Shown: in pieces, positions 7,905 through 27,830 of the stretch | Layout: the number at the start of each line of letters is the position of its first letter | Numbering within the stretch: the first letter of the stretch is position 1 | NCBI RefSeq assembly: GCF_043950625.1 | Contig: NZ_CP171007.1 | DNA length: 32,000 nucleotides | Direction: 5' to 3' (one strand) | DNA from: Alkanindiges sp. WGS2144 | GTDB taxonomy: Bacteria; Pseudomonadota; Gammaproteobacteria; Pseudomonadales; Moraxellaceae | Made by a program: the position numbers and the translations under genes | Notes under the pieces: model-generated | What the model saw: only the letters and a program-made list of their open reading frames with translations | Told to the model about the DNA's origin: nothing | Database searches by the model: none

Positions 7905-8807
7905 ATGAAGCTTTTTACTAAACTGGCTTTAGTTTGTGCAATCGCTGTTAGCGGTAGTGCAATGGCTATGGAATCACTGGACGATACAGCACTGAGTTCT
8001 GCAACTGGTCAGGAAGGTATCACTGTAAATGTGTTTAGCGATGGTATTTCTATCGGAAAGCTATTAATTCATGACGAAGATGGCTTATCTACTCGTGAAA
8101 CCACCCCGGGCGGTCAGAACTTGGGCGGTACTGGTGAAACAGGTGCCATCGTGGTTAATGATATATCTTTGGCAGTCGATGAGGATAATGCAAATGGAGC
8201 GCTCCGAGGTGCTTTAGCAAATATCAACATTGACACTGATGGTAACGGCGGCGATGCTTTCCTGAACATAGGTATCAATACTAATGCTCTGGCTGTTGAA
8301 GTAGGTAGCATTGCAGTAGCAAAGTCAGCTGATACTGTAACTGGTGCACGTCGTGGTACAGTTACTGGTGTTGCTGCAGATGATGAAACTGAAATTCTGG
8401 GTGCTTTAAGTGTAAATATTGGTGCGACCAGCATGAACATTCAGTTGGGTGCTGATGCTCCCCAAGATGCTCTGATCTGGGCAAATGCTACTATCACCAA
8501 TGGTATCAAAATTTCCAATATCGACTTAAAAGATCATTCAGATATGGATGGTTCAATCACAGCACTAGGTGGCTCAGGTTCTATTGGAATCGATAATTTA
8601 TACATCACCACTGCTGGCAGTGAAGATTTAATTGTAAATACCAAGATTGGTGTATCTCAGAATGGCTTAGTAGTTAAGTCTTCTGGTTCACAGGATATTT
8701 ACATGGATGCTGTACGTCTGGGTAGTGCTTCTGCTGCCTCTATCGGTGCAGTTGAAATCCAGGGCTTGAACATGGGTGAATCCATGATCGTTGTATCTGG
8801 TCACTAA
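7905..8807 (+). CDS. filA: Secreted Gly/Asn/Asp/Thr-rich repeat protein, paralog 1 of 4 (FilA-like/DUF6160-like putative fibre subunit)
   Basis: 300 aa. AGGAG RBS. Signal peptide MKLFTKLALVCAIAVSGSAMA|ME. Mature N-terminus ESLDDTALSSATGQEGITV. Ends ...MIVVSGH. No Cys in the mature part. Codon usage is dominated by GGT/GCT/ACT. The symbol comes from my memory of the Acinetobacter fil locus annotation and is unverified. Confidence 0.75.
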   Translation: MKLFTKLALVCAIAVSGSAMAMESLDDTALSSATGQEGITVNVFSDGISIGKLLIHDEDGLSTRETTPGGQNLGGTGETGAIVVNDISLAVDEDNANGALRGALANINIDTDGNGGDAFLNIGINTNALAVEVGSIAVAKSADTVTGARRGTVTGVAADDETEILGALSVNIGATSMNIQLGADAPQDALIWANATITNGIKISNIDLKDHSDMDGSITALGGSGSIGIDNLYITTAGSEDLIVNTKIGVSQNGLVVKSSGSQDIYMDAVRLGSASAASIGAVEIQGLNMGESMIVVSGH

Positions 8808-8816
8808 GTAACGGAT

Positions 8817-8847
8817 GGCTGGTAACCTTAGGGTTGCCAGCCTTTTT
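8817..8847 (+). terminator. Rho-independent terminator/attenuator directly after paralog 1
   Basis: GGCTGGTAAC (8817-8826) pairs with GTTGCCAGCC (8833-8842): a 10-bp stem with one G-U pair and a 6-nt loop, followed by TTTTT at 8843-8847. Confidence 0.7.
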
Positions 8848-8897: not shown

Positions 8898-9749
8898 ATG
8901 AAAACTTTAACAAAAATTGCTTTGGTTTCAGCAATGGCAATTAGCAGCAGTGCTTTTGCGTTGGAATCACTTGATGATTCAGCACTGAGCGCAACTACTG
9001 GTCAGGATGGTATTACCATTAAACTGGATGCCCAACAAGACGGTACCATTTTTGGTGCAGACAACATTGTTGTGCATGACAAAGACGGTGTTGGTAATAA
9101 CAATGGTGTATCCAATACTGGCGCTGGTGCGATTGTTTTAGGTAAAGGTGCTGCGGGCATTCAAGGTTTTAATATTATGGGTACTGCTAGTGATGCAGTA
9201 ACTATTAAAGTGGATGCAGATTCTAACGGTACTGCTCCAGTGTTAAACGTAAATGTTGCGCTGCCAGATGAATTAGAAGTAAATACTGGTGATATCTACG
9301 TGGCTTCATCAGGTGGTATTGCTGCTGACGCAAATGCTCAATTTGCTAATGAATCCAAAATTCTGGATAACATCAACATTAGCCTGGGTGGTGCTGAGAT
9401 GAACATCCAGCTGGGTAACACTGCACAAGGTGCCATGATTGTACTGGACGGTAATGTGGACGGTGGTATCAATATTGCTGGTCTGGCATTGACTGATAAC
9501 TCTGCTGGTGCAGGTGGTAAAATCACGATTGATAACATTAACGTACGTGACGCTGGTGGAGCCAACTTGGGCTTAGCCACTGACATTAAAGTAACCAATG
9601 ATGGTTTGTCAGTAATCCGTACCGGTGGTGATGTTGACGTTCGCTTAAGTGGTGTTCAGTTAGGCTCTGTTGGCCTTGCCCATAACCTGGGTGACGTAGC
9701 TATTCTGGGTATGGCTGTACCTAATATTACCATTAGCGGCCATAACTAA
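8898..9749 (+). CDS. Secreted Gly/Asn/Asp/Thr-rich repeat protein, paralog 2 of 4 (FilA-like)
   Basis: 283 aa. Signal peptide ...SSSAFA|LE. Mature N-terminus LESLDDSALSATTGQDGITI. Contains DADSNG and EMNIQLGNTAQG blocks. Ends ...NITISGHN. Gly codons are dominated by GGT. Confidence 0.75.
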   Translation: MKTLTKIALVSAMAISSSAFALESLDDSALSATTGQDGITIKLDAQQDGTIFGADNIVVHDKDGVGNNNGVSNTGAGAIVLGKGAAGIQGFNIMGTASDAVTIKVDADSNGTAPVLNVNVALPDELEVNTGDIYVASSGGIAADANAQFANESKILDNINISLGGAEMNIQLGNTAQGAMIVLDGNVDGGINIAGLALTDNSAGAGGKITIDNINVRDAGGANLGLATDIKVTNDGLSVIRTGGDVDVRLSGVQLGSVGLAHNLGDVAILGMAVPNITISGHN

Positions 9750-9886: not shown

Positions 9887-10738
9887 ATGATGCCACTAAA
9901 AACTATAATCATGACTTCTTTGCTATTGGCAAATGGTTCAGTATTTGCCTTGCAAACACTGGATGATTCTTCCTTGAGTCAGGCAACCGGACAGGATGGC
10001 ATTACCGTAACCTTGCAGGATTTTGAGCCCAATGCGCAGATTATCTGGACAGATACCAATGGTATTAATAGTGCCGATGGTATAGACCCTGCTAGTGTTG
10101 GAATTATAACAACCACACCACAGCCTGGTGCAGTGGTATTTGGTGATGGAACAAGAGCAAATAACTTTAGAATTAGTAAAGGCACCACGACACTAACTCT
10201 GGATGCTGACGGCAATAATGGTTCCCCAATGCTGAATATTAATATCAGTCTGCCTGAGGATTTAACGGTGCAAACTGGGGATATTTTTGTAGCTGGCAAG
10301 GATAATAATAACCAGCTGGTAAATATGATCAAAATTATGAATGACGTTAAGGTGGAGCTTGGTGGCTTGGATCTTAATGTACAGTTGGGTAGTGCCCCAC
10401 AGGGGCAACTGTTGAAATTTTATGGAACAGTAGTAGGTGGTATCCGTATTTCTAACCTAGCGTTAATTTCGGAGTCTTCAGGTACTGAGCAATATGGCAT
10501 TGGCATTCAGAAGATAACGGTTCGGGATGCAGGTGCAAGCGGTGACTTAACCTTTAATGGTAGTGGTGTCAGCGTTGCCAACACAGGGTTGATTATTACA
10601 CCTTCTGCTGGTAAACAGGTAGATGTATTAATGGATGATGTAAAAGTAGGTAACCTGGCTAGCAGTGCATCAATTGGTGGGGTGGCTGTGCTTGGTATGC
10701 AGCTTGATGGTAATTCATTAACGATCTCTGGACACTAA
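9887..10738 (+). CDS. Secreted repeat protein, paralog 3 of 4 (FilA-like)
   Basis: 283 aa. Signal peptide ...NGSVFA|LQ. Mature N-terminus LQTLDDSSLSQATGQDGITV. Contains DADGNNG and DLNVQLGSAPQG blocks. Ends ...SLTISGH. The start could be the second ATG (9890). Confidence 0.72.
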   Translation: MMPLKTIIMTSLLLANGSVFALQTLDDSSLSQATGQDGITVTLQDFEPNAQIIWTDTNGINSADGIDPASVGIITTTPQPGAVVFGDGTRANNFRISKGTTTLTLDADGNNGSPMLNINISLPEDLTVQTGDIFVAGKDNNNQLVNMIKIMNDVKVELGGLDLNVQLGSAPQGQLLKFYGTVVGGIRISNLALISESSGTEQYGIGIQKITVRDAGASGDLTFNGSGVSVANTGLIITPSAGKQVDVLMDDVKVGNLASSASIGGVAVLGMQLDGNSLTISGH

Positions 10739-10820: not shown

Positions 10821-11816
10821 ATGAAATGTACAACTGCAAAGCTGGCATATCTTGCAATATTAATACCATTGTCTTCTCACACATGGGCATTACAGGCTCT
10901 GGATGATCAATCTCTGGCCGCGCAAACAGGTCAGGATGGCATCAGTATGGCACTGGACTATCCTAACTCAACCATTAGTTTTAGTGAGGTGATATTAACC
11001 GATACTGATGGTATGCCAGATGCTACAAATGGCGCTTCACTGATTGTTGCTCCTGCAACATATAGCGACACCCAGGGCATTCGTATGTTTAAAAACAATA
11101 GCAATACTGCTATTGCCACCGCCCCTGTGCTCATCAAGATGGATGCGGACAGTAATAGTAATCAACCAGTATTTAATGCCAATATTTCCTTACCTACTGA
11201 TTTGGGACGTATGCGGATTAACCCGTTTTCAATTTATTTAACCGCTGGTTCAGATTCTATTTTCGAGCCTGGCACACGCATAAAAGATAGTACAGGCACT
11301 ATAAGAGCCACAGGCGTGACAGAGCTACTAAGAGTGAATACTGAAGGCATTGATGTGGTGTTTAAAGAAGGTGATCCCCTTAGTGTCAATGTACAGTTAG
11401 GAAATGCACCTCAGGGGCATATGCTCAAATTTACCGGTGGTAGTATTTTGTGTGTAGGTAACAATGCCTCATGCATGGCAACACAGGGTGAGGAAGGGAA
11501 AAATCCCATTGAGCTGATCTCTAAAAACAGTTCGGGTGAATCTAGCTTGAAACTTGGATTTACGCTTAAGGCGAGTGAACAGGATACCGGTTTCCGCCTG
11601 GCAGGTTTTTATGCAGGCTTTGATAATGACGGGCTGATATTTGGCAAAGAAGGTTCCACAGATAAGTTTGATTTTGTGTTAAATAATGTGGTTGCAGGCG
11701 AGGCAGGGGCACAAGCTCCAGAGACCTTTAATCATCTCAAAAATGGTTCAATGGGTAATTTTGGTTTAATAGGGGCTTCAGTCACTAATCTAAAAGTCAA
11801 TGTAAAGGGAATGTGA
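10821..11816 (+). CDS. Secreted repeat protein, divergent paralog 4 of 4 (FilA-like N-terminal two-thirds, unrelated C-terminal region)
   Basis: 331 aa. Signal peptide ...SSHTWA|LQ. Mature N-terminus LQALDDQSLAAQTGQDGISM. Contains DADSNSN and SVNVQLGNAPQG blocks. The C-terminal ~130 aa differ from paralogs 1-3, contain a CX6C pair, and end ...VNVKGM with no SGH terminus. Confidence 0.7.
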   Translation: MKCTTAKLAYLAILIPLSSHTWALQALDDQSLAAQTGQDGISMALDYPNSTISFSEVILTDTDGMPDATNGASLIVAPATYSDTQGIRMFKNNSNTAIATAPVLIKMDADSNSNQPVFNANISLPTDLGRMRINPFSIYLTAGSDSIFEPGTRIKDSTGTIRATGVTELLRVNTEGIDVVFKEGDPLSVNVQLGNAPQGHMLKFTGGSILCVGNNASCMATQGEEGKNPIELISKNSSGESSLKLGFTLKASEQDTGFRLAGFYAGFDNDGLIFGKEGSTDKFDFVLNNVVAGEAGAQAPETFNHLKNGSMGNFGLIGASVTNLKVNVKGM

Positions 11817-11993: not shown

Positions 11994-12830
11994 ATGTTTA
12001 TCGTCACGCTAGGATCAGCCTTAATTTATCATTTTGCCACTGAAGCATTACAAGTGGCGGATAAACCTGCTGGCTCAGTGTATTACACTGAAGTGGCAGA
12101 TTCCCGTTATCCCTCATTTGGTAAGTACCACCGTGAACCTGTTCAGGTCAAGCCGGCTATCGAACAGCAGTTCCGCGGTATTGTCAAACAAGCTTATGAC
12201 TATAGCTGTGGTTCAGCAGCGCTAACTACTTTGCTTAATGGCTATGTGGGCGAAAAGCTAAATGAGCGTCAAACCATGGATGGATTGATGCGCTATGGTG
12301 AGTATGATCGCATTGTAGAGCGGCGCAGCTTTTCACTGTTAGATATGAAACGCTTTGTAACGGCGCTAGGATACAATAGTGGCGGCTATAAAGGTAAATT
12401 TGAGGATCTCATAGCTCTTGATAAACCAGCCATTGTGCCTATTGCCTATGCTGGTTTTAAGCATTTTGTCGTATATAAAGCCTATCGTAATGGTCGTGTG
12501 TTTGTCGCTGACCCGGCTTTGGGTAATTTAAGTTTTAGTGCCGATCATTTTCAGGAAATCTGGGACAATAATACGCTGTTCATCGTTGACCCTCCGGTGG
12601 GACGTGAATTACCTGGTTTGCTTGCCCTGCAAGAACAGGATATGCGTATTGTGGAGGATAGCGTAATTGATCGATTTGCTTTTGTAGATGTACGCTATCC
12701 TACGTTAATGATGGAAAAAAATGCTGACCGGGCTGCCACTATGCGCAGAGTGCTTGATGAAGATCCAAAATCAGCAACCTATCAGCAACCTATTGATGTC
12801 CCTCTACGCTTATATTATAAGCGTAAATAA
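11994..12830 (+). CDS. filB: Stand-alone C39-type (papain-fold) cysteine peptidase, predicted exported (FilB-like)
   Basis: 278 aa. QAYDYSCGSAALTTLLN carries the catalytic-type Cys72 (nt 12207-12209). GFKHFVVY carries His157 (12462-12464). VFVADPALG carries Asp173 (12510-12512). There is no ABC-transporter domain. The 5' end is problematic (see findings). Confidence 0.75.
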   Translation: MFIVTLGSALIYHFATEALQVADKPAGSVYYTEVADSRYPSFGKYHREPVQVKPAIEQQFRGIVKQAYDYSCGSAALTTLLNGYVGEKLNERQTMDGLMRYGEYDRIVERRSFSLLDMKRFVTALGYNSGGYKGKFEDLIALDKPAIVPIAYAGFKHFVVYKAYRNGRVFVADPALGNLSFSADHFQEIWDNNTLFIVDPPVGRELPGLLALQEQDMRIVEDSVIDRFAFVDVRYPTLMMEKNADRAATMRRVLDEDPKSATYQQPIDVPLRLYYKRK

Positions 12831-12877: not shown

Positions 12878-14179
12878 ATGGTCATGCAGAAACAATGGAT
12901 GAATCGCTCAATACTGGCCCTAAGTATTAGTTTGGCAATGATTGGGGCGAATGTGCATGCAGCAGATGCAGAGGATTCTCAGGTTAATGAGAGTGCGGAC
13001 AGTGAAATAACCACTACACAGGAACAAGAAGGTACCACTGATCCAGTAGCTGCAGAAAGCCGGGAACAGGTTGAAGCTCCCTTAACTCATGATAATAATC
13101 CTGATGAGGTAGAAAGCACGGTTGTCAATACCGTTGCTGAGCGCCCGGATGATACGCAAGAACCAGTTGCTACCGCGCAGAGCGCTGCCACGGCTTCTGG
13201 CTCAACAGCTGTTACTCCTTCTATGGCACCTAAAGACAGTGCTGCCAGTGTTCTGGAGCAAAAAGCGGATGATGCGTCTGCACAAAGCAACTTGGAAGAA
13301 GTATTTACGCGTTCTGAGCAGCAGTATTCCTTATCCAAGCGTGGTTCTTATTCTGCCTACTATGATGTTGACTATAGTTATTACCGTGATAGTCGTCTGG
13401 ATTTGGCATTAAGCGATAGTGGATCAGCACTCACCCGGTTACGTGTGGAAGAGGATGCACAGCACAGTATTACCAATACGTTTACCTTCCAGTATGGTCT
13501 GCTGGATAACGTGACATTAACAGCTTCCTTACCCTTGGTTGCCAAAAGCGATAATCTAAAAGACGCTACTACTGCCGGTCTAGGGGATATTAGCCTGGGA
13601 GCACGCTGGGAACCATTCCCCCTAAAACAGGGCCGCCTGCCGTTAATTTTATTTGGTAGCCTCTCTACTAAAACAGGTGATAGTCCCTACGAAATTGACC
13701 CGGTTCGTGGCTTATCGACAGGTAAAGGATATTATTCCATCGGCGGCGGTGCCAGTACCCGTAAGTTTATTGATCCTGTCGTATTGTTTGCCTCTGGTTC
13801 GGTTAGCTATGGTCTAAAAGAAACAGGTATTAATCAGGTGCGGGGTAATACCAACCGGATTCTGGAGTCTTTTGATCCTGGAATGAGCGGTGGTATTTCG
13901 TTTGGTTTTGCATACTCATTTAACTATGATGTGTCTTTAACCATGTCATACCAGCAAAGCTTCTCGACTGGCAGTGAGTTTAAATTTGACAATGGTGATG
14001 TTTCAAAGCCAGCTGATCAAACCAGTGCCTCACTTGGTTTTTCTCTAGGGGTGCGGGTAACACCCAAGACTATTGTTAATGGTTCAGTGGGCTTTGGCTT
14101 AACTGAAGATGCGCCAGATGTGTCTTTAGGTCTTTCTTTCCCGCTGGATTTCCTGGGTTTTGGCCGTGACAACCGCTGA
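12878..14179 (+). CDS. filC: Outer-membrane beta-barrel protein (MetA/phenol-degradation 'transporter'-type, GLGD motif) with a long acidic N-terminal extension (FilC-like)
   Basis: 433 aa. Signal peptide ...GANVHA|AD. About 120 aa of D/E/S/T/A/Q-rich low complexity follow. The remainder alternates amphipathic strands, including TTAGLGDISLGARWEP, which is typical of that barrel family. Confidence 0.6.
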   Translation: MVMQKQWMNRSILALSISLAMIGANVHAADAEDSQVNESADSEITTTQEQEGTTDPVAAESREQVEAPLTHDNNPDEVESTVVNTVAERPDDTQEPVATAQSAATASGSTAVTPSMAPKDSAASVLEQKADDASAQSNLEEVFTRSEQQYSLSKRGSYSAYYDVDYSYYRDSRLDLALSDSGSALTRLRVEEDAQHSITNTFTFQYGLLDNVTLTASLPLVAKSDNLKDATTAGLGDISLGARWEPFPLKQGRLPLILFGSLSTKTGDSPYEIDPVRGLSTGKGYYSIGGGASTRKFIDPVVLFASGSVSYGLKETGINQVRGNTNRILESFDPGMSGGISFGFAYSFNYDVSLTMSYQQSFSTGSEFKFDNGDVSKPADQTSASLGFSLGVRVTPKTIVNGSVGFGLTEDAPDVSLGLSFPLDFLGFGRDNR

Positions 14180-14190
14180 GGCACGCTAGT

Positions 14191-15855
14191 ATGAAAATAA
14201 ATTTGCGCTTGCGGCCTTTAAGTTGTGCCATATTGCTGTCCAGCGTTTCGGCTTTATCTCATGCACAGCTAGGGCAAAACCTGTCTATTGATATTCGTGC
14301 TTTATCCATGGGGAATGCGGTTACTGCAGACCCGCCGGGAATCAGTGCGATTCATTTTAACCCGGCAGGTTTAACCAAAATACAGGGTTTACAAACTGAT
14401 GTTCAGGGCTTGCTGGTAGACTTTAACATTCGCCGAGAATTTGAAGCACCGCCAGGCTATAACGTATTTGGTTATTCAGATGATCCTCTTATTTGTAATG
14501 AAATGGAGATGGGTCAAAAATTATGTGGGGAATTTAAGGATTACGCGGTTAGTAAGGTTGATCATCCCAGTCTTTATGTCCCTGTTCTAAAGAAAATTGT
14601 TAACTGGCCACAAGGCTTACCATTAGCCGCCCCTTTGGCGGGGGCCGCCTATAATCCTCCAGGCTCAAAAATTACATATGCTTCGGGTTTATATGCGCCG
14701 TTAGTTGCAGGCTTTGGTTCGGCAGATGGTGATCCTGGTAACTACATGGGTCAGCAAGTAGCCATTGAGCGGATCACTTATTTATCCCCCTCAGCAGCCT
14801 ATAAGGTTAATGATCACTTATCGTTGGGTGCTTCGGTAGGTATGTCTTATCAGGCCATTGGCTTAAAGACAGATTTACGTTTTCCCAATGAATTGATTGG
14901 CGTACTACGCTTAATTGATGAAGATGTCTGTGGCCCATTTAAAGAAAATGGTAATATTGTTGGTAACCTATTATTATTTGGTATTTGTAATGCTGAGGAG
15001 AGTATAGGGCCGTTTAAAAAGCTAGCTGCCATGGACGTGGCGCTGGAGCAAAGCTTATCTCCTACGTATAACCTGGGTTTGCTCTGGGAACCTAATGATG
15101 ATTTTGGCTTTGGTATGGTTTATCAAAGCTCTAGCAAAATGAAGCTTAAGGGCAAGTATGCTATTGATAATGGCAGAGGTGCGCAGGAGCTGATTCGTGC
15201 TTTGGGTTCGTCAGCTACAGGTGTAATTTTACAGGCTATTTTAGGCTTCCCATCTTATATACCTCCTACAGAAAGTGGCATTGTATCCATGGACTTGGAG
15301 TATCCAGCGCATTTTCAGGCAGGGATTAAATATAAGGTAATGCCGGACTTACAGTTTAATTTTGATATCGGCTGGACGGATTATGCTGCCTGGGATTCCT
15401 TCAAATTTAATTTTGACCGCCAGGTATCTGCTTTAAAAATTGCACGACTTTTAACTAACGGCGCTACCCCAACAAGTCTGGAACTTCCTTTAGGATTTCG
15501 CAGCCCCTGGAGCTGGGGGGTAGGCATGGAGTATAGTGCGACTGATCGTTTAAAGCTGCGGTTAGGTTATGAACCTCGAAAGAGTGCTATTCCCGACGAT
15601 CGACGTAATACGCTGGTGCCAATTAATAATGCACAAATGTTTGGTGCCGGTATTGGTTATCAATTCGATCCGGATACCACAATTGACCTAACAGCGATGC
15701 ATTTACGTAGTCGTGATAATATTCCTGCAAATACAAGTGGGCTAGCCAACAAAACCGGGGTGAATAATTTATTGTTAAACCCATATGCAGGCTTGGACAT
15801 TAAAACCAACACAAAAGTTACCATTTTAGGTATAGCATATCGCACGGTTTGGTAA
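14191..15855 (+). CDS. filD: FadL/TodX (OMPP1) family outer-membrane transport protein (FilD-like)
   Basis: 554 aa. Signal peptide ...ALSHA|QL. LSMGNAVTADPPGISAIHFNPAGL is the N-terminal hallmark of the FadL family. The C-terminal beta-signal is ...LGIAYRTVW. It starts 11 nt after filC. Confidence 0.75.
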   Translation: MKINLRLRPLSCAILLSSVSALSHAQLGQNLSIDIRALSMGNAVTADPPGISAIHFNPAGLTKIQGLQTDVQGLLVDFNIRREFEAPPGYNVFGYSDDPLICNEMEMGQKLCGEFKDYAVSKVDHPSLYVPVLKKIVNWPQGLPLAAPLAGAAYNPPGSKITYASGLYAPLVAGFGSADGDPGNYMGQQVAIERITYLSPSAAYKVNDHLSLGASVGMSYQAIGLKTDLRFPNELIGVLRLIDEDVCGPFKENGNIVGNLLLFGICNAEESIGPFKKLAAMDVALEQSLSPTYNLGLLWEPNDDFGFGMVYQSSSKMKLKGKYAIDNGRGAQELIRALGSSATGVILQAILGFPSYIPPTESGIVSMDLEYPAHFQAGIKYKVMPDLQFNFDIGWTDYAAWDSFKFNFDRQVSALKIARLLTNGATPTSLELPLGFRSPWSWGVGMEYSATDRLKLRLGYEPRKSAIPDDRRNTLVPINNAQMFGAGIGYQFDPDTTIDLTAMHLRSRDNIPANTSGLANKTGVNNLLLNPYAGLDIKTNTKVTILGIAYRTVW

Positions 15856-15867
15856 CTGGTACTCATC

Positions 15868-17091
15868 ATGCCTATAAATATCTGGAAATTTATCGCGATC
15901 AGTGGATTAGGCCTGCTTTGTATAAACCCGGTTGCTCATGCAGAGCGCTCCGGGTTTTATACAATTATTGGCCCGGATGGGCGTATCATGGTAGTTGATC
16001 GCAATGCTCCAAGCGACCGTGAAACCAGGACGAAAGTAGCTACTAAGCAACCTAAAACTGCTCATAAGACAGCGACATCTTCAAAGTGGTCTTTATTTAG
16101 TGGCAAGACTAAAAGTAAGATAGTGAACTCACCACAGCAGCCTACCTCGGCTGTTAATTCTACTCTACCAGCAGGTAAAACTACCCCCTCAGCTACAACT
16201 CACGATTCTGCCCCAACTTCAGTAAGTCATTCTGTTGAGCAGCGGGTGTTTGTCCAGCAGCCAGAAATGCAATCGATAAGTAAAACAGAAGCCGCTATAA
16301 AAACAAATTCAGTAAAAGCAGAAAATAGTGAAAATCCTATAAAAAATAAGGCCATTCCGGCTTCCAGCCCTACTGTACAACCATCAATAGGAGAAGAATC
16401 GCCGTCCGTTGATAGCCAGCCAGTTAAAACCATTGATGGCGAGCAGTATGTCGATAGCGAATACTTAGAGGCGCATGAGTTTAATTTAGAAGGAAAAAAA
16501 AGATTTTATAACCTGCCTGATGGTTTGGGAGGCACGCAGGTGCTCCAGCGTGAAAAGGGCGTCGATATGAGTTTCTTTCGACGTTTTAAAGCCGAGCAAC
16601 CGCAGCAGCAGGTTGTTAACCTGGCAAAGAACTATCAGCGTCTTAGCCAGAATGAGGTAACAGCACTTACTGGAGTACAATGCTTTAGTGAAAAGCAATT
16701 GAAAAAAGCCAAGCTGCTCCGTAAAGATGAAAGCCTGAGTTTATGGCCCAAGCCTGGGTTTGAGCCAAAATTTGATTTTGTAGTCGCACGGCTATCTGAA
16801 CAAATTAATGATATCCAATTTAATTCATATGCTGATAAGATCAGTAATCCTGAATTTTACTGGCCTTTACCTATATTTCTGGATGATAAAGGCTGCGTAA
16901 TAGAGGGGGTCAATGCGTTTTATCAGCAGACCATTTCCCCTACGGTGACTACTCGCCAGGCACTGCAAGGCTATATGCATATTCCGACAGGTACGAGCTA
17001 TGTATTGCTAACTCCACTTGAGGCAGCAGTTGACCTTGAACATATTCAGTTAACGGACAAAGGACAGGTTCGTTTAACACCGGTTCGTTAA
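15868..17091 (+). CDS. filE: Exported protein of unknown function with an S/T/P/Q/K-rich linker (FilE-like)
   Basis: 407 aa. Signal peptide ...INPVAHA|ER. A low-complexity region of ~140 aa (nt ~16009-16437) follows, then a ~215-aa C-terminal domain. It starts 12 nt after filD. The symbol comes from the remembered fil locus order. Confidence 0.55.
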   Translation: MPINIWKFIAISGLGLLCINPVAHAERSGFYTIIGPDGRIMVVDRNAPSDRETRTKVATKQPKTAHKTATSSKWSLFSGKTKSKIVNSPQQPTSAVNSTLPAGKTTPSATTHDSAPTSVSHSVEQRVFVQQPEMQSISKTEAAIKTNSVKAENSENPIKNKAIPASSPTVQPSIGEESPSVDSQPVKTIDGEQYVDSEYLEAHEFNLEGKKRFYNLPDGLGGTQVLQREKGVDMSFFRRFKAEQPQQQVVNLAKNYQRLSQNEVTALTGVQCFSEKQLKKAKLLRKDESLSLWPKPGFEPKFDFVVARLSEQINDIQFNSYADKISNPEFYWPLPIFLDDKGCVIEGVNAFYQQTISPTVTTRQALQGYMHIPTGTSYVLLTPLEAAVDLEHIQLTDKGQVRLTPVR

Positions 17092-17119: not shown

Positions 17120-19102
17120 ATGAACAGATTTTACAAAAACTCAAAGAGCCCGTTTGCATTAACAACCTTATGCTTGTTACTCAGTGCTTGTGGCGGTGAA
17201 AGCAATACATTTAATGAAGGCTCTGGCTCAACAGGTGGTGGTCAAGGCAATGGCAGTATGACGCTACTATGCCCCAGCGATGATTTAAGTTGTGTAGATG
17301 TGGTATTTGATGATACGCCAGTGGTGAACTTGAATTACGAATGCGGCAAGTATAATGGGGTAACCGATGCAACAGGCACTGCACGCTGTCCTATTGACTC
17401 TAATGTCAAATTTTATCTTAAGGCAGCTAATGGCGTACGCCGGGTTAACCTAGGTACTTTTTCTATCAAATCAGTGCGGAATAATGACCCGTCTGAAGCG
17501 CAGGATACCTCACTAATTCGTATAGGCGTTAAAGAACTGGCCGAAAATACGACAGGTGCTTCCATTAATAATCTTGATGATAGTGCAACAGCAACGGCAG
17601 CCATTAATATTAGTCGGCTTTTACAGTCCTTGCGGCGCAAATCAGAGCCCTATGTAGAGACAGCACCAGTCAATCGTGTCTATATTGATAATGCCGTTAA
17701 AGCTGATATTGAAAAAATAAGCCAGAACGTAGAGCCTAAGGATTTCCTGGATGATACTTTTGAGGAAAAGCTGGCACCCTGGTTAGAAGCGCAAAAAAGA
17801 ACCTTGCTTGATGAAGGTGTTGCAAAGGCCAGACTGGAGAAAACCATACTTGCCACTAAGTCGGGTATATTCTTCTCTACTCCCACAGCTACGCTGGATT
17901 GGGGTATGCAGATTGGTAGCCTAAATCTGGATTTAGGCATTTCTGGTTCAAATGCCAATAATCAGCGTGCCAGTGTGGCTGTATATATGCTCACAGACCG
18001 CACAGGGCAAACCACGGGCTATGGGATGCAATGGACTGGGCAGACGACTACTGCTCAAGATGCATATAAGCTATTTTTAACCAGCAATTTTGCCAAAATG
18101 CGTATCAATAATGCATCCGGTAGCATTGATCCTTACACTGATCGTTTTAATAAACTGGGTTTCAAAGTTGGGCCCAAAACTTACGAAGCGAACGATGCCA
18201 ATCAGTATAGTGGAGATACCTTTAGTTTTAATAATGGTAAGTTAATTCGGGACTTGGCTGTTTTTGGTTCTGCCGATGTATATGAGTTTTTTACTCGCGT
18301 GAAAATAGCAGACCAAACTGAGCTTGGTACCTGGGAGCAAAAAACACCAACAGGAAGCACCAGTTTTACCGGAAACGCAACGGTATTTAAAACTGGCGCG
18401 ATAAATAGCTACTTTGATCCGGCGGTATGGCGTACCAAAGATAGTATCACTGCAGGCAACTACATATTCCCTTTGTATGCTACTTTTACATTCAGCTACG
18501 ATGACGCTTATTTGGAGGAGTGCAAGAAGCAAGCCCTTACTTGTGCTAAATCAGATCAGTTACCTGTGGTCTTCCTGGAAAATGGTGACATTATGACCGA
18601 TGGCGATAATGCAGATCTATTAGTGAACTCAAAAGCAGTATGTGGGCAGGGTAATATTCCACAAACTCGTATTGGTACTGTGCGTGCTGCTTATACCAGC
18701 ACAGATGGCAATCAGGCTTATATTAATCCCAGTGTGATTTTATCCGGTGATCAGTTTGGTGCACTGGATGGTATACAAATAGGCACTTCTGCGTTGGCGC
18801 CCCGGGTCAAAATTAATATTGCTGGTATTAAACAGGCTGCAACCGGTCAGCAAGGTAGCATTAACGTGACCAGTGCTGAGGGCGGCGACACTGCTTCAGG
18901 TAACGCGCCAGGAGTTTGGGTGAATGGATTTAATAGCTTTACAGGCTTTCGTGTAGCACAAAAAGAGGCAGAAGATGCGGCAGAAGAGAAGCCTGAAAAA
19001 CCGTCACCAGCCATTACCAAAGCGCAAAAACTTGCCTCTGAACAGGTGGCAGGTAATCTTGCGGCAAGTGTTTCTTCTTGTTATACAGTAAAACAGAAGT
19101 AA
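17120..19102 (+). CDS. filF: Large lipoprotein of unknown function (FilF-like)
   Basis: 660 aa. Lipobox LLLSAC|GGES with Gly at +2, which predicts outer-membrane sorting. There are four Cys within the first ~70 mature residues and a K/E/A/P-rich C-terminal tail. The size and position match my memory of Acinetobacter FilF. Confidence 0.6.
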   Translation: MNRFYKNSKSPFALTTLCLLLSACGGESNTFNEGSGSTGGGQGNGSMTLLCPSDDLSCVDVVFDDTPVVNLNYECGKYNGVTDATGTARCPIDSNVKFYLKAANGVRRVNLGTFSIKSVRNNDPSEAQDTSLIRIGVKELAENTTGASINNLDDSATATAAINISRLLQSLRRKSEPYVETAPVNRVYIDNAVKADIEKISQNVEPKDFLDDTFEEKLAPWLEAQKRTLLDEGVAKARLEKTILATKSGIFFSTPTATLDWGMQIGSLNLDLGISGSNANNQRASVAVYMLTDRTGQTTGYGMQWTGQTTTAQDAYKLFLTSNFAKMRINNASGSIDPYTDRFNKLGFKVGPKTYEANDANQYSGDTFSFNNGKLIRDLAVFGSADVYEFFTRVKIADQTELGTWEQKTPTGSTSFTGNATVFKTGAINSYFDPAVWRTKDSITAGNYIFPLYATFTFSYDDAYLEECKKQALTCAKSDQLPVVFLENGDIMTDGDNADLLVNSKAVCGQGNIPQTRIGTVRAAYTSTDGNQAYINPSVILSGDQFGALDGIQIGTSALAPRVKINIAGIKQAATGQQGSINVTSAEGGDTASGNAPGVWVNGFNSFTGFRVAQKEAEDAAEEKPEKPSPAITKAQKLASEQVAGNLAASVSSCYTVKQK

Positions 19103-26420: not shown

Positions 26421-27830
26421 ATGATTGAACTTAAGCCTTCTAAAAATTTTCTAAGTGATTTGCGCGATAACCAGATTGCGGCAATGTGGATGCTGATTGG
26501 CTCCAAACGCTGCTTTAACTGGATTACTCCTAACGGCTGGCAGTTTTTATTCTGGGCTATTCTCGCCTGTCTAGCCAATACCTTATTTAGCTGGCTGACT
26601 GCAGGGGGTGCAGGGCACTTTAATCTGCAGGGTCTGGTCAGTTATTTGTTATGGCCATTTATTGCCTTAATTGCGGGTATTTTTCTGGCACAGCGTAGTG
26701 GACTTGGTCGCTTACTGTTAGTGCCTGCCCTGTTATGGCTGATTGCTGATGTCAATGTGGCTTTATTGCAGAGTCTGGTGCAGTTCTTAGGACAAATTGA
26801 CCGGCTGCCGGACTGGAGCTATGGCTATCTGCCTACTATCTTTCTGGTTTTATTTGTTTGGCAAACCGTGGCGGTTTTCTGGGTGTTTGCTCGTGCTTTG
26901 CATTGGCCGTGGTGGGAACAGGCGCTTATTCTAGTAGGTATTATTCTTACCTTGACCATTTGGCAGTCATCAGTAAACAGTCAGCCAATCTGGAAGGTTC
27001 AGGAGCAGCGTATTTCTCTGCCCGAGGCGGCTATTTATGCACAGCCGCGCCTGCTGGATGATGTATTAACGCAAATGCAAAGCAGCGTGCAAGGACAAAG
27101 TAACTGGTATTTTATGGGTGTGGCCGGGGCAGGCTATCAGGATGTATTTAAATCAGAGATAGACCGCATCCAGCGTCAGTTTGATACCCGTTTTGGGACT
27201 TATGGTCGCTCAGTTGCACTGGTCAATAACAATAAAACCTTTATTAGTCAGCCTATTGCCACCAAAACCAGCATAGAACGCAGTCTGGCACGTATTGCTC
27301 AGCAAATGAATCCGGATACCGATGTGCTGTTTTTATACATGACATCGCACGGCCTGCCCAGTGTGTTTGAGCTGGCTAATGAGCCTATTGATATGCAGTC
27401 GGTTGACCCGCAATGGTTGCGTGAGGTGTTGGATCGTTCTGGTATCCGCTGGCGTGTCATTGTGATTTCCTCATGCTATTCTGGTAGTTTTGTGCCAGCA
27501 CTACAATCACCTGATACGCTGGTCATTACTGCTTCAGCTGCGGATCGTACCTCTTTTGGCTGTACCAATGAGGCAGAATATACATACTTTGGACGTGCTT
27601 TTTTTGATGAAGCATTACGCTCGCAGCGCAGTTTTAAATCTGCTTTTGAAGTAGCGACGGCTCGTATTAAACAGTGGGAAAAAGCCCAGGGGTTTGAGCA
27701 TTCACAGCCGCAGTTTAAGCTGGGTCAAAATATGGCACTGATGCTGCCGCAGTTTGAAAGTCGCCTGTTTCCACCCGAAATGCTGACTGATCCTGCAAGT
27801 CAGCCCGTAGAGGCGCCGTTGGAACACTAG
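26421..27830 (+). CDS. Membrane-anchored peptidase C13 (legumain/caspase-fold) family protein
   Basis: 469 aa. The N-terminal ~190 aa contain several Trp-rich TM segments. The C-terminal domain carries LFLYMTSHGLP (His310, nt 27348-27350) and VIVISSCYSGSF (Cys352, nt 27474-27476), i.e. the His/Cys dyad context of clan CD peptidases. Confidence 0.75.
   Translation: MIELKPSKNFLSDLRDNQIAAMWMLIGSKRCFNWITPNGWQFLFWAILACLANTLFSWLTAGGAGHFNLQGLVSYLLWPFIALIAGIFLAQRSGLGRLLLVPALLWLIADVNVALLQSLVQFLGQIDRLPDWSYGYLPTIFLVLFVWQTVAVFWVFARALHWPWWEQALILVGIILTLTIWQSSVNSQPIWKVQEQRISLPEAAIYAQPRLLDDVLTQMQSSVQGQSNWYFMGVAGAGYQDVFKSEIDRIQRQFDTRFGTYGRSVALVNNNKTFISQPIATKTSIERSLARIAQQMNPDTDVLFLYMTSHGLPSVFELANEPIDMQSVDPQWLREVLDRSGIRWRVIVISSCYSGSFVPALQSPDTLVITASAADRTSFGCTNEAEYTYFGRAFFDEALRSQRSFKSAFEVATARIKQWEKAQGFEHSQPQFKLGQNMALMLPQFESRLFPPEMLTDPASQPVEAPLEH

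Follow-up and report, generated by a model that had tools for sequence, protein, structure and literature searches.

FilB, a FapD-type C39 peptidase of the fil operon, and a candidate leader in the FilA fibre subunits of Alkanindiges

What does a C39 cysteine peptidase cut when it is encoded as a stand-alone protein? The question is raised by Alkanindiges sp. WGS2144, in a stretch of 32,000 nucleotides (nt) of contig NZ_CP171007.1, which we will call the window. The gene filB is found there in positions 11994–12830 (+ strand, stop codon included). It codes for 278 amino acids (aa) and is recognized as a stand-alone C39 cysteine peptidase from its open reading frame (ORF), from Pfam PF03412, from the NCBIfam model NF050078 (pilus_FilB) and from a Foldseek comparison. 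A sequence-only reading had presented it as an unusual orphan. This framing does not hold: FilB passes the curated NCBIfam FilB model and its Acinetobacter orthologues have already been named. The protein is an orthologue of the annotated FilB, itself a stand-alone C39 of the FapD type, and the gene itself is ordinary. What the locus offers is a candidate substrate with a candidate bond: the fibre subunit FilA, with Gly35-Gln36 followed by Asp/Glu37. The fil operon is found across Acinetobacter, the A. baumannii group included.

FilB and its family

The model NF050078 matches FilB from end to end, with 511.4 bits against a cut-off of 475 and profile positions 1–277 of 277. Identity is 90% with Alkanindiges proteins and 60–69% (one value is 68%) with the Acinetobacter proteins called 'putative pilus system C39 family peptidase FilB'. 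An exhaustive search among 1.8 billion cluster representatives brought up 1751 FilB-related clusters, of which 873 (at 50% identity) have E below 1e-10. The related proteins are mostly stand-alone, with a length of 220–260 aa.

The catalytic domain covers aa 63–198 (12180–12587, + strand), as delimited from Pfam Peptidase_C39, from alignment with PCAT1, from conservation and from the predicted local distance difference test (pLDDT). The Pfam profile PF03412 matches this region with E 3.4e-15 and 56.5 bits, while its gathering score is 22, which settles in favour of C39 a doubt of the sequence-only reading, namely that a profile search might place the protein outside the C39/papain clan. The catalytic codons are those of Cys72 (TGT, 12207–12209) in the context YSCGSAA, His157 (CAT, 12462–12464) in FKHFVVY and Asp173 (GAC, 12510–12512) in VADPALG. 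Gln66 (12189–12191) is the expected oxyanion-hole residue. When checked on the sequence, the ORF, the residue positions with their contexts and the hydrophobic N-terminus were all found as that reading had given them.

Its account of FilB as a C39 which stands alone and keeps its catalytic centre also holds. Among the 139 best representatives of the family (50% identity or less) Gln66 is kept in 137, Cys72 in 137, His157 in 135 and Asp173 in 136, and the same four residues are kept in 76 FilB orthologues, so that a pseudo-protease, which had been envisaged, finds no support. Because of this conservation the large clade related to FilB is, as judged from its residues, one of active enzymes. The inactive C39-like domains (CLD) of RTX-toxin exporters are characterized by loss of the Cys; since Cys72 is present and conserved, FilB does not appear to belong with them. 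We consider it highly probable that FilB is an active protease of the FapD type dedicated to the Fil system.

The nearest solved structures by sequence are the PCAT1 peptidase domain and a double-glycine protease (E 5e-6 to 3e-3); C72, H157 and D173 align onto the active-site motifs of both. An AlphaFold2 model was built with 37 orthologues. It is confident only in the core, with pLDDT 71–89 across aa 70–210 and low values beyond aa 220. A superposition on C39 folds had been proposed as a check: the core of the model is best superposed on the peptidase domains of PCAT1, ComA and LahT150 (Foldseek E 2e-7 to 9e-6), with template modelling (TM) scores of 0.69–0.76 relative to these stand-alone domain targets. 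In the model FilB has the papain-like C39 fold.

No ATP-binding cassette (ABC) transporter was found among the window ORFs scanned, as had been said before; FilB has no ABC domains and its 278 aa are too short for one. Fusion of the C39 domain with the transmembrane and ATP-binding parts of an ABC transporter is the mark of the AMS/PCAT peptidase-containing ABC exporters, and FilB lacks it.

The protein starts with a hydrophobic export or anchor segment, MFIVTLGSALIYHFATEA (aa 1–18, 11994–12047, + strand), defined by its hydropathy and by the absence of Lys and Arg. G7, S8 and A9 are invariant in 37 orthologues, and a small-x-small site, T16-E17-A18, is kept in orthologues. A conserved segment without a basic residue is unusual for a cleaved signal peptide, and for this reason FilB may retain it as a membrane anchor. 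A reading-frame check found no upstream start: a stop is placed 15 codons 5' of the gene, with no ATG, GTG or TTG in between. We also looked for a longer frame which would give FilB a basic n-region and did not find any; two relatives have longer annotated N-termini.

At the other end FilB has a C-terminal tail, aa 201–278 (12594–12827, + strand), defined by conservation in orthologues and in the 139 family representatives. An extension had been noticed before, but its length is 78 aa rather than about 70. The tail is closed by a conserved RLYYKRK and contains a leader-like segment, LLALQEQDMRIVEDS (aa 209–223, 12618–12662, + strand), detected by its pattern and conserved columns. Numbered as a leader, it is hydrophobic at -15, -12, -7 and -4 and acidic at -8, but where a leader would have Gly-x it has Asp-Ser. 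The 139 representatives conserve these columns. The segment may be a pseudo-leader which docks in the groove of the enzyme itself.

A putative leader in FilA and at other C39 loci

The four FilA paralogs of the window have a signal peptide followed by a putative leader, always on the + strand. In FilA1 the signal peptide occupies aa 1–21 and the leader is MESLDDTALSSATGQ (aa 22–36, nt 7968–8012), after which the chain continues with EGITV. The corresponding segments are LESLDDSALSATTGQ in FilA2 (aa 22–36, nt 8961–9005), followed by DGITI, LQTLDDSSLSQATGQ in FilA3 (aa 22–36, nt 9950–9994), followed by DGITV, and LQALDDQSLAAQTGQ in FilA4 (aa 24–38, nt 10890–10934), followed by DGISM. Overall identity among the paralogs is only 27–40%, while the segment behind the signal-peptidase site is invariant: all four have T-G-Q-(D/E)-G-I, 13–18 residues past that site. 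The putative leader has 15 residues in the double-glycine register: positions -15, -12 and -7 are hydrophobic, -2 is Gly, and the last two residues are Gly-Gln, not Gly-Gly.

We have prepared a profile of this leader from 94 unique FilA-like N-termini. It has A-x-A at -18 to -16, which is the signal-peptidase site, then M/L at -15, M/L/I/V at -12, D/S at -11, D at -10, L/M at -7, T/A/V at -4, T at -3, G/A at -2 and Q/R at -1. Beyond the proposed cut it continues with D/A at +1, an invariant G at +2 and I/V/L at +3. The leader is the best conserved part of FilA. Among the 81 ORFs of the window the motif is present in the four FilA paralogs only; FilC, FilD, FilE and FilF do not have it.

Double-glycine leaders follow the code Leu(-12)-X3-Glu(-8)-Leu(-7) and end with GG, GA or GS; Leu-12, Glu-8, Leu-7 and Val-4 dock in a hydrophobic groove and the last 13 residues suffice (PMC6363468). 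By sequence the FilA segment is in this register, its main departure being at P1. The match is closer in more distant FilA-like proteins, for example VSDSDLSNVTGQ and LSDSALAKIGGR. It had been said that no Gly-Gly is conserved across the four FilA paralogs, and indeed there is none. It had also been said that they have ordinary Sec signals and no GG leaders; here the Sec signal is followed by a leader in double-glycine register which ends with Gly-Gln, and the premise that double-glycine-type substrates are lacking is probably wrong. In the AlphaFold2 model of FilA1 a helix covers aa 28–34 and the first beta-strand aa 38–43: the proposed cut falls between them. After residue 38 the model is all-beta (mean pLDDT 69.5); a fold search of this model against the PDB gave no significant match, the best E being 0.2.

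Related C39 genes provide a wider view of such leaders. A regular expression written from the literature consensus was applied to 2370 ORFs of metagenome loci, with shuffled sequences as a control. It matched 23 ORFs with G/A/S at P1 (2.2 in shuffles) and 28 ORFs with Q/R/H/E/K at P1 (1.4 in shuffles). Most of these leader ORFs (45 of the 51) are on the same strand as the C39 gene and within 6 kb upstream of it, a class which comprises 412 ORFs; the enrichment has an odds ratio of 40 and p 5e-29. Some loci have a cargo with no relationship to FilA; there the C39 gene is closely preceded by small ORFs in which a signal peptide is followed by a fully canonical leader, such as LSDDELASITGG, LSDAELDQVFGG and LTDAQLDSVTAG. 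The canonical cargo leaders found next to related C39 genes end with GG, AG or GS. Ten leader-bearing cargo ORFs of non-Fil loci, compared with Pfam, gave no family apart from one weak NHL repeat. The leader endings form a continuum, from canonical ones to GQ, AQ and GR. Four loci (L084, L085, L092 and L107) have cargo leaders ending with GG or AG beside others ending with AQ or GQ. Since both kinds are mixed within single loci, the sequences suggest that a single protease tolerates both endings.

The Fap amyloid system gives a further comparison. The sequence-only reading had quoted FapD as a precedent, and the relationship is well founded: the FapD model matches FilB with E 2.4e-30, the FapF model matches FilC, the product of the next gene, with E 1.7e-15, and FilC matches FapF in the PDB (5o67) with E 7.9e-10. 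One metagenome locus, L125, is a genuine fapABCDEF operon, with all six NCBIfam equivalogs above cut-off; reciprocally, its FapD and FapF match the FilB and FilC models. FilB is not itself a FapD equivalog: with NF058616 it scores 105.5 bits, while the cut-off is 330 and the genuine FapD of L125 reaches 389.9. It is not encoded together with the amyloid components FapA, FapB, FapC and FapE either, since no window protein matched the Fap subunit or chaperone models at E <= 0.01. FilB belongs to a broader kind, a stand-alone C39 with an export segment beside an outer-membrane barrel related to FapF. In a sample of 80 metagenome loci of distant stand-alone C39s, with 30–50% identity to FilB, a FilC/FapF-like barrel directly adjoins the C39 gene in at least 38 of the 53 loci with enough sequence.

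The FapE protein of L125 (9154–9891) has a signal peptide, then VSDAELSELRGR, then YVMPGR. A segment (L/V/I)-x-D-x-E-L-x-x-L-R-G-R-Y is found throughout the FapE homologues examined (P0391–P0510), Pseudomonas included. The regular expression matches 76 of 114 FapE homologues; of the remaining ones, those inspected depart from it solely in having Lys, His or Arg at -11, save for one misannotated case. This segment looks like a double-glycine-type leader which ends with Gly-Arg and is a candidate cleavage site for FapD. Rouse et al. reported that FapD is periplasmic, that its C38A mutant abolishes secretion, that canonical C39 sites are absent from Fap proteins and that FapE is the only Fap protein found by mass spectrometry to be completely processed at its N-terminus (PMC5557850). 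The L-R-G-R site was not identified in that 2017 paper (PMC5557850), from which the question of the FapD substrate dates. The motif offers a specific site for the reported processing of FapE: our prediction is a cut after the invariant L-R-G-R, before Y. It also supports an analogous reasoning for FilB and FilA.

Proposed maturation of FilA and its alternatives

The pathway which we propose would start with the passage of FilA through the inner membrane via Sec and the cut of signal peptidase I after A-x-A (aa 19–21). A leader of 15 residues would remain at the N-terminus as a short amphipathic helix. FilB, facing the periplasm, would bind this helix in its C39 leader groove and cut after Gly35-Gln36, exposing (D/E)-G-I-T-V. 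The trimmed FilA would then be handed to the barrels FilC (FapF-type) and FilD (FadL-type) and be built into a surface fibre. As a whole, we think it rather likely from the sequences that FilB is a periplasmic leader peptidase of the FapD type which trims FilA before it leaves the cell.

Several elements of this chain are firm: the family of FilB, its intact active site, its fold, the conserved operon and the kinship of FilB and FilC with FapD and FapF. The leader motif is firm as well, in its existence, its conservation and its genomic linkage. We infer the periplasmic location of FilB from its hydrophobic N-terminal segment, from the experiments on FapD and from a matter of logic: if FilB cut after Gln36 in the cytoplasm, the Sec signal would be lost before export, and FilB therefore has to act once FilA has been translocated. 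We also infer that FilA is the substrate and that Gly35-Gln36 precedes the exact scissile bond; the cut might release the subunit for export or license it to polymerize. Cleavage past a Gly-Gly-type motif is expected of a C39 peptidase, and the only candidate for it here is a leader which ends with Gly-Gln. In a wider sense FapD- and FilB-type C39s might represent a widespread two-step maturation in diderm bacteria, in which a Sec signal and then a double-glycine-type leader are removed, the latter in the periplasm by a stand-alone C39 coupled to a FapF-type barrel, P1 having diversified from Gly/Ala/Ser to Gln in FilA and Arg in FapE. We consider this generalization about as likely to be right as wrong.

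Among the reactions which had been suggested for FilB, trimming of the subunits is clearly favoured, but other substrates have to be weighed. FilC is related to FapF and has a long extension at its N-terminus, and Rouse et al. raised the possibility that FapD cuts a linker or plug of FapF (PMC5557850); FilB could in the same way act on the transporter rather than on the cargo, by a cut in the periplasmic N-terminal region of FilC which would open or close the barrel. We find this quite unlikely, because that region (about aa 29–125, acidic) is poorly conserved and rich in gaps in 79 orthologues and shows no leader-like motif; the conserved motif tracks the cargo genes, not the FilC-type barrel. 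Another view is that the FilA segment is never cut, but is a targeting or assembly element (for example a donor strand, or something recognized by FilC or FilD), while FilB processes FilE, FilF or itself. The conservation of FilA does run on into the mature part, where +2 is an invariant Gly and +3 and +5 are hydrophobic; FilE has a conserved FxTIIGPDG motif at its N-terminus, and cleavage of the FilA leader is a prediction from sequence. Yet the segment fits the C39 leader register, also in loci where it ends with a canonical GG, and it co-occurs with a catalytically intact C39; FapE, which has the same motif, is N-terminally processed (PMC5557850). FilE and FilF cannot be the conserved substrate, because they are absent from distant Fil-like loci which keep A-B-C-D. 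An uncleaved segment appears unlikely to us.

FilB might also be its own ligand. Its tail, with the conserved leader-like pattern of aa 209–223 described above, could be the primary occupant of the groove in an autoinhibited or self-processing zymogen, cleavage of FilA being secondary or absent. The likeness is one of pattern only, in a region where model confidence is low beyond aa 220, and it is compatible with trimming of FilA rather than an alternative to it; as a replacement for such trimming we regard it as decidedly improbable. Finally, FilB might hold the subunits as a chaperone without cutting them, like the C39-like domain of HlyB: binding-only domains of this kind do exist and two of them, 3zua and 7sgr, are among the fold matches of FilB. 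They lack the catalytic Cys, whereas Gln, Cys, His and Asp are near-invariant in the FilB clade, and FapD requires its Cys (PMC5557850), which makes this role extremely improbable. A transpeptidase or sortase-like activity, which had also been mentioned, is unlikely as well, because the acyl-enzyme would carry the N-terminal leader and not the subunit.

Several observations do not favour trimming of FilA by FilB. In the FilA proteins of the window position -8 is Ala or Ser, not Glu, and position -4 is Ala, Thr or Gln, not a strong hydrophobic residue. Characterized C39 domains cleave behind a P1 residue that is Gly, Ala or Ser; to accept Gln or Arg there, the S1 pocket would have to be different. 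When the P1 class (small, Gln or Arg) was compared with the C39 alignment columns in 30 loci, no clear active-site determinant appeared, in a sample which is small and confounded by phylogeny. Seven N-terminal peptides of FilA (30–31 aa), searched against NCBIfam at E <= 10, found the FilA model only and no known family of double-glycine leaders, the motif being too short for such a search to be informative. Where a metagenome locus extends 1.5 kb or more upstream (44 loci), the strict regular expression detects a leader ORF in only 21. The register match could in part be the generic periodicity of an amphipathic helix, and the FilA motif might serve FilC or FilD as a targeting signal instead. 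The missing basic n-region of FilB also makes its topology uncertain.

The fil operon and its comparison with known systems

The six Fil models of NCBIfam ('putative pilus system') match consecutive genes of the window, a complete filA(x4)-B-C-D-E-F operon, all on the + strand. It starts with filA1 (7905–8807), which codes for a DUF6160 fibre subunit according to Pfam and NCBIfam. Directly 3' of it, before filA2, there is a strong terminator-like hairpin (8817–8842, + strand) with an 11-bp stem, seven G-C pairs and a T-run; it may attenuate transcription beyond the first subunit gene, as in other pilus operons. The genes filA2 (8898–9749) and filA3 (9887–10738) were assigned with NCBIfam, and filA4 (10821–11816), the most divergent paralog, with Pfam and NCBIfam. 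After filB comes filC (12878–14179), which starts 47 nt 3' of it and codes for the outer-membrane barrel related to FapF; its pilus_FilC score, 613.9 bits, is just under the cut-off of 630. An outer-membrane barrel of the FadL/OmpP1 type is coded by filD (14191–15855; Pfam Toluene_X E 2e-63, NCBIfam pilus_FilD 1029 bits, cut-off 970). The last two genes are filE (15868–17091; Pfam FilE_C E 2.9e-62, NCBIfam pilus_FilE 377.8 bits, cut-off 100) and filF (17120–19102), a predicted lipoprotein (LLSACGG) with a pilus_FilF score of 371.7 bits, just under the cut-off of 390.

The order filA-B-C-D-E-F is unvarying in 80 genome loci, as far as the contigs reach; only the copy number of filA changes, from 1 to 4. 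Outside Moraxellaceae neither FilE nor FilF was found in the 80 metagenome loci examined. A subset of these loci has the full FilA-like(n)-B-C-D arrangement. Twelve distant Fil-like loci (L087, L091, L097, L103, L107, L111, L113, L117, L127, L134, L143 and L158) keep the B-C-D core; several of them have FilA-like genes upstream and none shows FilE or FilF. For this reason the protease with its two barrels looks like the conserved core, FilE and FilF like accessories specific to Moraxellaceae. The operon of the window is flanked by housekeeping genes: a MurA/AroA-type enzyme, hisG, hisD, hisC, Nudix hydrolases, BacA and methyltransferases. Outside the operon and apparently unrelated to it, an ORF of 469 aa (26421–27830, + strand) has a legumain-type Peptidase_C13 domain (E 1.8e-31).

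We searched the literature for FilA, FilB, Fil pili and DUF6160. FilA has been named as a fibre subunit in Acinetobacter sp. Tol 5, and vaccine work has used FilF as an antigen; our search gave no mechanistic study of Fil, no paper on FilB and no paper connecting Fil with Fap. What is new here is that the target of FapD and the maturation of Fil fibres are turned into predicted scissile bonds. If the proposal is true, the outer-membrane secretion of fibre subunits has taken over a leader of the bacteriocin type and placed it after a Sec signal. The leader rule could then help to find the cargo of uncharacterized loci with a C39 and a barrel, to be sought among the 873 clusters mentioned above, and hundreds of uncharacterized cargo families would join the same pathway. 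FilB would also become a candidate anti-adhesion target, through which fibre assembly might be blocked.

We may now compare FilB with known systems. With the peptidase domains of ComA, PCAT1 and LahT (AMS/PCAT) it shares the fold and the catalytic residues, and the putative substrates of FilB-type enzymes share the leader register: Leu-12, an acid at -8, Leu-7, a hydrophobic residue at -4 and Gly at -2. FilB differs from them in having no ABC transporter as fusion partner, and it would act after Sec export, not in the cytoplasm. The Fil leader is found behind a Sec signal peptide, not at the N-terminus, and has Gln at P1 instead of Gly, Ala or Ser; its cargo is a fibre subunit of 26–33 kDa, not a small peptide.

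In the type V pilins of Bacteroidia an Arg-gingipain removes an N-terminal segment, which permits polymerization by strand exchange. The idea of a periplasmic or surface protease which licenses assembly by removing the N-terminal segment of a pilin would be the same, as an analogy only: the protease family, the pilin fold and the export route are unrelated to Fil.

The Fap system is closer. FapD is also a stand-alone C39 with an export signal, encoded together with a FapF-type barrel, and its catalytic Cys is essential (PMC5557850); its partner FapE carries a post-signal leader of the FilA kind, ending with Gly-Arg. FilB differs by its 78-aa tail and its uncharged N-terminus. The Fil cargo consists of all-beta DUF6160 subunits, not of Asn/Gln-rich amyloid repeats. 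FapA, FapB, FapC and FapE are absent from Fil, which has FilD, FilE and FilF in addition, and in Fil the barrel gene comes directly after the protease gene. The closest relative is the FilB of Acinetobacter (NF050078), which agrees with the protein studied here over its full length, in the operon order filA-F, in the N-terminal segment and in the C-terminal tail. They differ in the host, here an Alkanindiges-like member of the Moraxellaceae, and in the number of subunit genes: four filA in this operon, one in most Acinetobacter.

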